A stretch of DNA of 64,000 bases, taken from a virus. Its lineage: Duplodnaviria; Heunggongvirae; Uroviricota; Caudoviricetes. The notes below the pieces were generated by a model. The model was not told the DNA's origin and did not search any database. It saw only the letters and a program-made list of their open reading frames with translations. Shown here one piece after another: positions 49,287 to 49,946 of the stretch (position 1 is its first letter; each line of letters begins with the position of its first letter). The stretch lies in the IMG/VR virus record IMGVR_UViG_2880372215_000004. One strand, given 5' to 3'. Made by a program: the position numbers and the translations under genes.

Positions 49287-49946
49287 AATAAATCCTTATT
49301 ACATGTTTATATCCATTAATAATATCAATCCATTGATACTATTAGTGTCACATATCCGATGTGGACAGCTTTAATATATAACTGTTTGAATGCTTGATTG
49401 ATGTGACTTAGATCTCAAAATTAAGTTGTTAAATTTACCAGTTTATCGCTTGAACACTTAAAATAAATTATAAATGTTTCTGTTATTGTTTTTTATAGTT
49501 TAAATTATTGTTGGTTGTATAAGCTGATTACATTTTTACTCTAAGTGTTATAAATATTTTATACTGATATTAGTCTTATTATATATTTTTTTAATGAAAA
49601 TGAGCATAAAACTAAGACATATAATGCTTGGCAGCTTTATGCTCTTCTGATTGGCTGTATGTTTGATGACAAAAAATTAGCGCAAGAGGACAAAAAATCA
49701 CCTTGCGCTAATGCTCTGTCTCAGGTCACTAATCACATCTAACTCATTGATTAATTGTGACTCTAAATGTAGTGTTTTGTCGCGTTTTGCAGTCTATCAT
49801 TTAATCAATTGTATAAATAACATAATGATTTTTAATGTGTTTTTGTGATTTTATCCTCCTTCTGACATGGAAGTTGTTCGTTCAAAAATCTTATTAAATA
49901 TCAAGTTGTTAAATCTGGTAAGTCATTATTGGTCAAAATAAAATCA

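Follow-up and report, generated by a model that had tools for sequence, protein, structure and literature searches.

In phage lambda, transcripts from pI stop at a hairpin followed by a U-run (the terminator tI), which gives a stable int mRNA, and N-antiterminated transcripts from pL read through tI. In the read-through RNA, the U-run and the bases downstream of it pair with bases upstream, forming a longer stem that serves as an RNase III site (sib); after cleavage by RNase III, the int message decays from its 3′ end. Integration of the phage parts sib from int, and Int synthesis on induction is thereby permitted. The sib retroregulation of int is treated in PMC5300877 and appears in the title of a work by Plunkett and Echols that is cited in PMC5371410.

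Effector genes carried by prophages sit after the tail fibres, next to att (PMC3530523), and the effector gene nleA is under the control of Ler (PMC3891560). Chromosome-derived attB sequences in the effector locus of the PPompW prophage family were described by Nakamura et al. 2021 (PMC8112680), who left open the mechanism of their capture; that paper mentions neither sib, nor an internal attP, nor a piece derived from attλ.

The DNA analysed here, a stretch of 64,000 nucleotides referred to as the window, matches E. coli O157:H7 genomes with 100% identity, and the region under study forms the right end of a lambdoid prophage, the one at ompW (PPompW in PMC8112680). Its gene order is J, lom, tail fibre genes, nleG′, nleA (47961-49286, minus strand), copy 1 of the repeated element, and int′, followed by a tail-fibre 3′ fragment, nleH1-2, nleF, IS256′, copy 2 of the element, and ISEc8. 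The ompW prophage is presumably the one that bears the names CP-933P and Sp9. The EDL933 annotation gives the tail-tip gene J (41014-44532) as frameshifted, as would fit a defective prophage.

An earlier note had claimed an element of about 70 bp in two copies, and both are present in the window where it placed them; its two intervals are 81% identical, with 89% identity in the hairpin part, and lie 2 nt out of register. The length proved to be an underestimate, as the likeness extends over about 190 bp (roughly 49660-49850 vs 53340-53530), the extra similarity beyond 70 bp running on the right side of each copy. The neighbours were correctly named: 382 bp separate the start of copy 1 from the start codon of nleA, which had been put at about 380 bp, and copy 2 adjoins the degraded IS256-like fragment, a remnant of an IS256-family transposase gene (52706-53340, minus strand) that ends beside it.

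Copy 1 (49669-49733 in its whole extent) consists of A6 (49671-49676), TTAGCGCAAG (49677-49686), CTTGCGCTAA (49702-49711), and CAGGTCACTAAT (49722-49733), and AGGTCACTAAT of this copy falls inside the last of these intervals. Copy 2 (53348-53412) consists likewise of A6 (53350-53355), TTAGTGCAAG (53356-53365), CTTGCGCTAA (53381-53390), and CAGGTCACTAAT (53401-53412), its arm TTAGTGCAAG being imperfect due to a T at position 53360. An inverted repeat, which had been given as 10 bp, is indeed present; its length in copy 1 is 12 bp, to which a lower stem of 6 bp is added. When both strands of the 64 kb were searched with a 42-nt consensus pattern, copies 1 and 2 were the only matches, both on the plus strand, vs 0.00 matches expected from shuffled sequence. 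Two shorter patterns that tolerate indels returned the same two matches in the window, again both on the plus strand and with about 0 expected. A chance palindrome was considered and rejected.

The element as such is already known, since sib/tI, the Int arm-type sites, and the att cores of HK022 and lambda are textbook material and are annotated in related records. A blastn search of positions 49640-49780 against phage records gave 78 matches, including lambda 27528-27644 with 87% identity over 117 nt. The matched stretch overlaps the "sib retroregulation site" of HK97 (AF069529, 21042-21091, minus strand), the "Transcription terminator tI" of O276 (MH547045, 22367-22406), and the Int-binding features "int 1" (27583-27602) and "int 2" (27615-27634) of lambda, which are found shortly upstream of int and the attP crossover (27724-27738). 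In a four-way alignment, sib, P1, P2, the core, and the P′ arm were all in register. The hairpins, on the minus strand at 49669-49719 in copy 1 and at 53348-53398 in copy 2, are 95% and 91% identical to that of lambda (about 27530-27580), respectively. Each is followed directly by the P1 site of a P arm, so that both copies lie outside attP and distal to int. The P1 site CAGGTCACTAAT, which aligns to int 1 of lambda, is exact in both copies (49722-49733 and 53401-53412, plus strand). The inverted P2 site of copy 1, AATTGTGACTC (49753-49763, plus strand), aligns to int 2 and differs from lambda by two changes, and the P2 site of copy 2, CATAGTGACAG (53432-53442, plus strand), differs by one.

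These results lead us to conclude, with a probability of about 93%, that the repeated element combines two parts, a sib/tI retroregulator hairpin of the lambda family, which is read on the minus (int-sense) strand, and the Int arm-type site P1 next to it, and that the two copies are orphaned relics. They share with the annotated sib/tI of lambda, HK97, and O276 the 12-bp stem, the U-run, and the extendable lower stem, as well as the strand relative to int and the place directly outside P1 of the P arm. They differ in that copy 1 faces a dead int and now stands upstream of nleA on the same strand, whereas copy 2 has no int and contains three broken pairs.

Folding of the minus-strand RNA of copy 1 yielded a 12-bp stem (49677-49711) followed by U6, with a free energy of -29.8 kcal/mol and a z-score of -4.3, and the lambda counterpart folds alike (-29.6 kcal/mol, z -4.5). 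The consensus fold of 10 distinct homologs added a 6-bp lower stem that spans the U-run, with 21 pairs in all, and every live copy, as well as copy 1, keeps 21 of the 21. The lower stem pairs with the U-run and thus can form only in read-through RNA; in copy 1 it corresponds to the predicted RNase III (sib) structure. Copy 2 is the sole one of the 10 homologs with broken pairs (3 of 21): one upper-stem pair has become a C·A mismatch through the change of C to T at 53360, and the other two breaks are among the six lower-stem pairs. Its hairpin (-17.3 kcal/mol, z -1.3) folds no better than shuffled sequence. Covariation was absent across the 10 homologs, the stem being essentially invariant. A search of positions 49300-53800 against Rfam at E≤1 returned no family, sib/tI being absent from Rfam, and the hairpins were not called by a simple terminator scan, which limits the loop to 8 nt; the loop of this hairpin is longer.

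To the right of P2, copy 1 runs on into an attP core, CCTCCTT/CTGACAT/GGAAGTTG (49855-49876, plus strand), which was located by comparison with the attP of HK022 and mEp235 and with Stx1a prophage ends, and then into a P′ arm with the Int arm-type sites P′1-P′3 (49919-49950, plus strand), conserved with the P′ arms of lambda and HK022. The half-sites of the core are HK022-like, and the 7-bp overlap (CTGACAT) differs. We take the aligned reference cores to be divided as CATCCTT/TAGGTGA/ATAAGTTG in HK022 and as CAGCTTT/TTTATAC/TAAGTTG in lambda. In Stx1a prophage ends with an annotated 15-bp duplication, the crossover falls at the same alignment position as the core of copy 1.

The P′ arm is followed by the pseudogene int′ (49947-50941, minus strand), which carries a frameshift and an internal stop and lacks the N-terminus according to the RefSeq annotation. 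An open reading frame of 246 amino acids within it is 73% identical to residues 111-355 of lambda Int, and its DNA is 83-86% identical to the int genes of HK022 and Stx1 phages. At about 50935-50941, a junction to the final 70 nt or so of a tail-fibre gene truncates the N-terminus; this 3′ fragment (50935-51006, plus strand), fused to the truncated int′, is 94% identical to the ends of Stx-phage tail-fibre genes. The next cargo consists of nleH1-2 (51113-52024) and nleF (52090-52659).

When the core of copy 1 was centred in a query, only the left half matched in O111:H8 and other strains. In O111:H8, the order is nleG, nleA, sib, P arm, core, and a truncated DUF1175 gene beside the α2-macroglobulin gene. 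The attR of this prophage agrees with the window almost base for base through CTCCTTCTGACATGGAAG, which ends at 49873, and then enters the DUF1175 gene; past 49873 the window, unlike the O111:H8 attR, goes on into P′ and int′. This switch indicates that copy 1 corresponds to the attP of an nleA-carrying phage type that is integrated elsewhere in the DUF1175 gene. As judged from the sequence, copy 1 is a complete and un-recombined attP (sib-P1-P2-core-P′1-3) of a phage type with an HK022-like Int and with nleA outside sib, and it keeps the vegetative gene order of tail fibres, cargo, sib, attP, and int. It shares the P1/P2/P′1-3 layout and the half-sites C(A/C)TCCTT...AAGTTG, besides the int identity given above, with the HK022-type attP (AF069308, attP 20504-20730) and with Stx1-phage att. 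It differs from the HK022 attP in the overlap (TAGGTGA in HK022), in its bacterial site, which is the DUF1175 gene, and in being un-recombined and buried within another prophage.

Copy 2 continues differently from copy 1. Its core GCTTTTTATACTAA (53538-53551, plus strand) is the lambda core GCTTTTTTATACTAA minus one T, as seen by comparison with lambda attP and with the ybhB attR junctions in four genomes. The core is followed by the B′ arm and the bacterial ybhB-side flank of attλ (53552-53587, plus strand), where the sequence TTTGAGCGAAAC…AAAAAGTTGTTTTT is homologous to the B′ arm and ybhB-side flank in the same four genomes; compared with E. coli attλ, it has a deletion of 8 bp and a few substituted bases. 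This flank ends in GTTTTTCG, the 8-bp target duplication of ISEc8, an IS66-family element of 2442 bp (53588-56029, minus strand; ends GTAAGCG...CGCTTAC) that is inserted in the fossil B′ flank. On the far side of the ISEc8 copy in EDL933, the 8-bp duplication GTTTTTCG is followed by TGTCTTTAAGTGATACCAGATGGTATTGCGC, which continues the ybhB-side flank and is taken to be the ybhB terminator region.

The pre-insertion sequence rebuilt from these parts (396 nt) has exact counterparts (100% identity) in 249 complete genomes, O111 and O145 among them. The uninterrupted form in O111 and O145 has a backbone of IS256′, fossil attR, a hypothetical gene, nleG, and espM1, after which ompW′ follows in the O145 strain and a recombinase remnant and tonB in the O111 strain. 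Among the species-representative genomes, the B′ variant with the 8-bp deletion was not found at any native site, either with or without the ISEc8 site. Read in the same way as copy 1, copy 2 is a recombined attR (sib-P1-P2-lambda core-B′ plus bacterial flank) left by a phage with a lambda core that had been integrated at an attλ-like site. This attR was afterwards struck by ISEc8, and decay of its hairpin has begun. It resembles the lambda attR (P-O-B′) at attλ by ybhB-bioA in its P arm, lambda core, and ybhB-side B′ arm and flank; it differs in lying inside the effector locus of the ompW prophage rather than at attλ, in a core one T short, in the 8-bp deletion of B′, and in the interruption by ISEc8. 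Behind nleH1-2 and nleF, the ompW prophage contains some 80-90 bp of bacterial DNA from beside attλ (B′ arm and ybhB side), counted over 53538-53587 and the continuation past ISEc8 in EDL933.

The 8-bp flanks of ISEc8 in the window do not match each other, being GTTTTTCG on the left (53580-53587) and CTGATGTC, from an IS256 interior, on the right (56030-56037). In EDL933, the ISEc8 copy at 2.29 Mb is preceded by GTTTTTCG and has the matching duplication on its far side, and the left junction of the copy at 1.89 Mb carries CTGATGTC, which in the window follows ISEc8. The source genome of the window therefore differs from the EDL933 arrangement by an inversion of some 400 kb, bounded by two ISEc8 copies in inverted orientation. 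The expectation that the window runs on to ompW as in EDL933 was wrong, as it switches at ISEc8 to the sequence that EDL933 has at 1.89 Mb. On the right-hand side, past ISEc8 and a C-terminal fragment of IS256, positions 56900-57871 contain a DinI-like gene and a truncated tyrosine integrase gene (57320-57871, minus strand), and recE′, dicB, and a cI/cro region lie beyond; this is the left end of a different prophage, brought by the inversion.

Comparison of the two copies showed 72% identity over 186 nt, made up of 89% in the hairpin and 66% in the P arm, with outer flanks that are unrelated (46%). The nearest relatives of copy 1 were Stx1a-phage (85%) and HK022 (81%), and those of copy 2 were lambda-type attR sequences (80-81%). 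For the P arms, the corresponding values were 81% to Stx1a-phage for copy 1 and 75% to lambda for copy 2. A likeness of 72%, with each copy nearer to a different phage lineage, indicates that the copies are relics of two different phages and not the product of a local duplication or a transposing unit. Local duplication of one att region within the prophage would fit the shared orientation, the distance of 3.7 kb, and the presence of sib, P1, and P2 in both copies; however, it appears extremely unlikely, because the P arms are so dissimilar and of different affinity, the cores differ (CTGACAT vs a TTTATAC-type overlap), copy 1 is P-O-P′ whereas copy 2 is P-O-B′, and the O111 and O145 prophages have copy 2 without copy 1.

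The earlier note had also considered the terminus of an unrecognised small mobile element. The element does mark the end of a mobile element, but this is the P arm of a lambdoid phage (attP/attR) and not a small transposon. A terminal inverted repeat of the MITE type or an IS end is suggested by the inverted repeat inside the element, by the position of copy 2 next to the IS256 remnant and 190 bp from ISEc8, and by a half copy in BP-4795 that is cut by an IS66-type end. Nevertheless, an inverted partner copy is absent from both strands of the 64-kb window, and the copies are direct, 3.7 kb apart, lack flanking duplications, and are only 72% alike, each being nearer to another phage. The homology runs smoothly into the P arm, the core, and P′ or B′, and the ends of ISEc8 with their 8-bp duplication sit in the B′ flank, not at the element. 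The IS256 piece, which replaced whatever lay outside copy 2, is annotated without its N-terminus and with its 5′ end toward copy 2, so that the junction appears unlike an intact IS terminus. The probability of a MITE or IS end is consequently close to nil.

The element was found in 2,066 of 5,426 complete E. coli genomes, at about 3,549 places with one to six per genome, and its context was surveyed in a sample made up of four chromosomal sites and some 10 phages or prophages. In all four sampled unrelated genomes, taken at points down the ranking, the element occupied the attR position at attλ, some 200 bp from ybhB-bioA, and the cargo beside it encoded a diguanylate cyclase in one genome, an AraC-family regulator in two, and gtrA/B in one. 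The third copy in O157, which differs by a 1-nt indel in the loop, lies between nleD and ybhB, where it represents the live attR of the attλ prophage. The genome-wide association with effector genes or IS ends raised in the earlier note was not borne out, since by sampling the association is with att/int instead.

This distribution bears on the proposal of a cis-regulatory site that serves effector genes specifically, such as an operator or RNA element for nleA and other nle genes. All three O157 copies adjoin effector genes (nleA, nleF/IS256′, and nleD), the spacing and sequence from nleA to sib are conserved in O157, O111:H8, and BP-4795, and nleA is regulated by Ler (PMC3891560). However, the element also occurs in lambda, HK97, HK022, and mEp235, phages without effectors, and the four sampled genomes carry non-effector cargo beside it. 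Its placement varies with respect to the effector genes, being upstream on the same strand for nleA and downstream for nleF and nleD, but is constant with respect to the att arm, and copy 2 is decaying. The adjacency is explained by effector cargo filling the slot between the tail fibres and attP (PMC3530523). A dedicated effector regulator is thus very improbable. The regulatory nature of the site that had been proposed stands, but not its target, as the documented target in lambda is the int gene.

Neither copy would be able to retroregulate an integrase, because the int gene faced by copy 1 is a pseudogene and copy 2 lacks one altogether. A functional int under control was found for neither, and both are members of the sib/tI group by descent that are functionally orphaned. 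The stem of copy 1 is identical to that of lambda tI, and it should therefore still stop minus-strand transcripts coming from the int′ side. The nleA gene lies downstream of this tI on the same strand, and the linkage of nleA, sib, and P arm is kept in O111:H8 and BP-4795, with tI placed about 355-380 bp upstream of nleA in O157, O111, and BP-4795. By ending minus-strand transcription about 380 nt before nleA, the tI of copy 1 could insulate the Ler-regulated nleA promoter region from read-through. The conservation from nleA to sib is compatible with such an insulator role but is accounted for just as well by simple linkage; the constancy of the tI position may leave room for a secondary role at nleA. 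As a weaker addition to the reading of the two relics as an assembly record of the locus, the intact tI of copy 1 might have been retained because it insulates nleA from upstream read-through. A literature search found no paper that maps the nleA promoter relative to the element.

Related loci differ in their make-up. In BP-4795 (NC_004813; locus extract 2973-3075, minus strand), a half copy of sib is present besides the full copy upstream of nleA; it retains the 3′ arm and the sequence from P1 on, and an IS66-type end (…CGCTTAC) marks the point at which the other arm is replaced. O111:H8 (NZ_CP077585; locus extract 1648-3628) carries a second nleA prophage in the DUF1175 gene by the α2-macroglobulin gene, and the locus is modular. 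The ompW-type prophage of O111, which lies by tonB, is without nleA and copy 1, nleG′ being joined straight to int′. O145 RM9873 is without nleA, nleH, and nleF, and has lom′ joined to IS256′.

The right end of the attλ prophage of O157 (EDL933, 918-945 kb; locus extract 8929-11571) reads tail-fibre-assembly fragment, nleH1-1, IS256′, nleD, sib, attR, and ybhB. This layout resembles positions 50935-53587 of the window, which read tail-fibre fragment, nleH1-2, nleF, IS256′, sib, and fossil attR, and suggests that the nleH1-2 cassette descends from the end of a prophage integrated at attλ.

In summary, the two sib-bearing att relics may be viewed as a sequence record of how the ompW effector locus was built, namely by capture of right ends from two or more other prophages, of which one brought along part of the host chromosome; we give this history even odds. 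The effector locus would have grown by capturing the right ends of other phages, and the host chromosome piece, if this is true, would be the signature of an imprecise, λbio-like excision or of recombination between prophages. The attB sequences reported for PPompW (PMC8112680) are found in the same prophage family and effector locus and are likewise chromosome-derived att-flanking DNA inside a prophage. They differ in being yecE, ykgJ/ecpE, and ompW-like attB sites that still accept phages, whereas the relics described here are a hybrid attR and a whole attP that are probably inert. That work is modestly extended by the buried attP and by the hybrid attR with its host flank, which point to right-end capture. 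If right-end capture took place, it would provide a concrete mechanism for the entry of chromosome-derived att sequences into prophage effector loci, the question left by Nakamura et al. 2021.

A hairpin of about 50 nt followed by CAGGTCACTAAT is a sharp marker in EHEC and EPEC of current or former ends of lambda/HK022-type phages, even inside other prophages, and repeats near virulence genes should not be read as virulence regulators. In the present locus, the element delimits effector cassettes (nleA; nleH1-2/nleF; nleG/espM1), one of which came with a hybrid attR and host flank, and this bears on the origin of exchangeable effector loci and of att sites within prophages.
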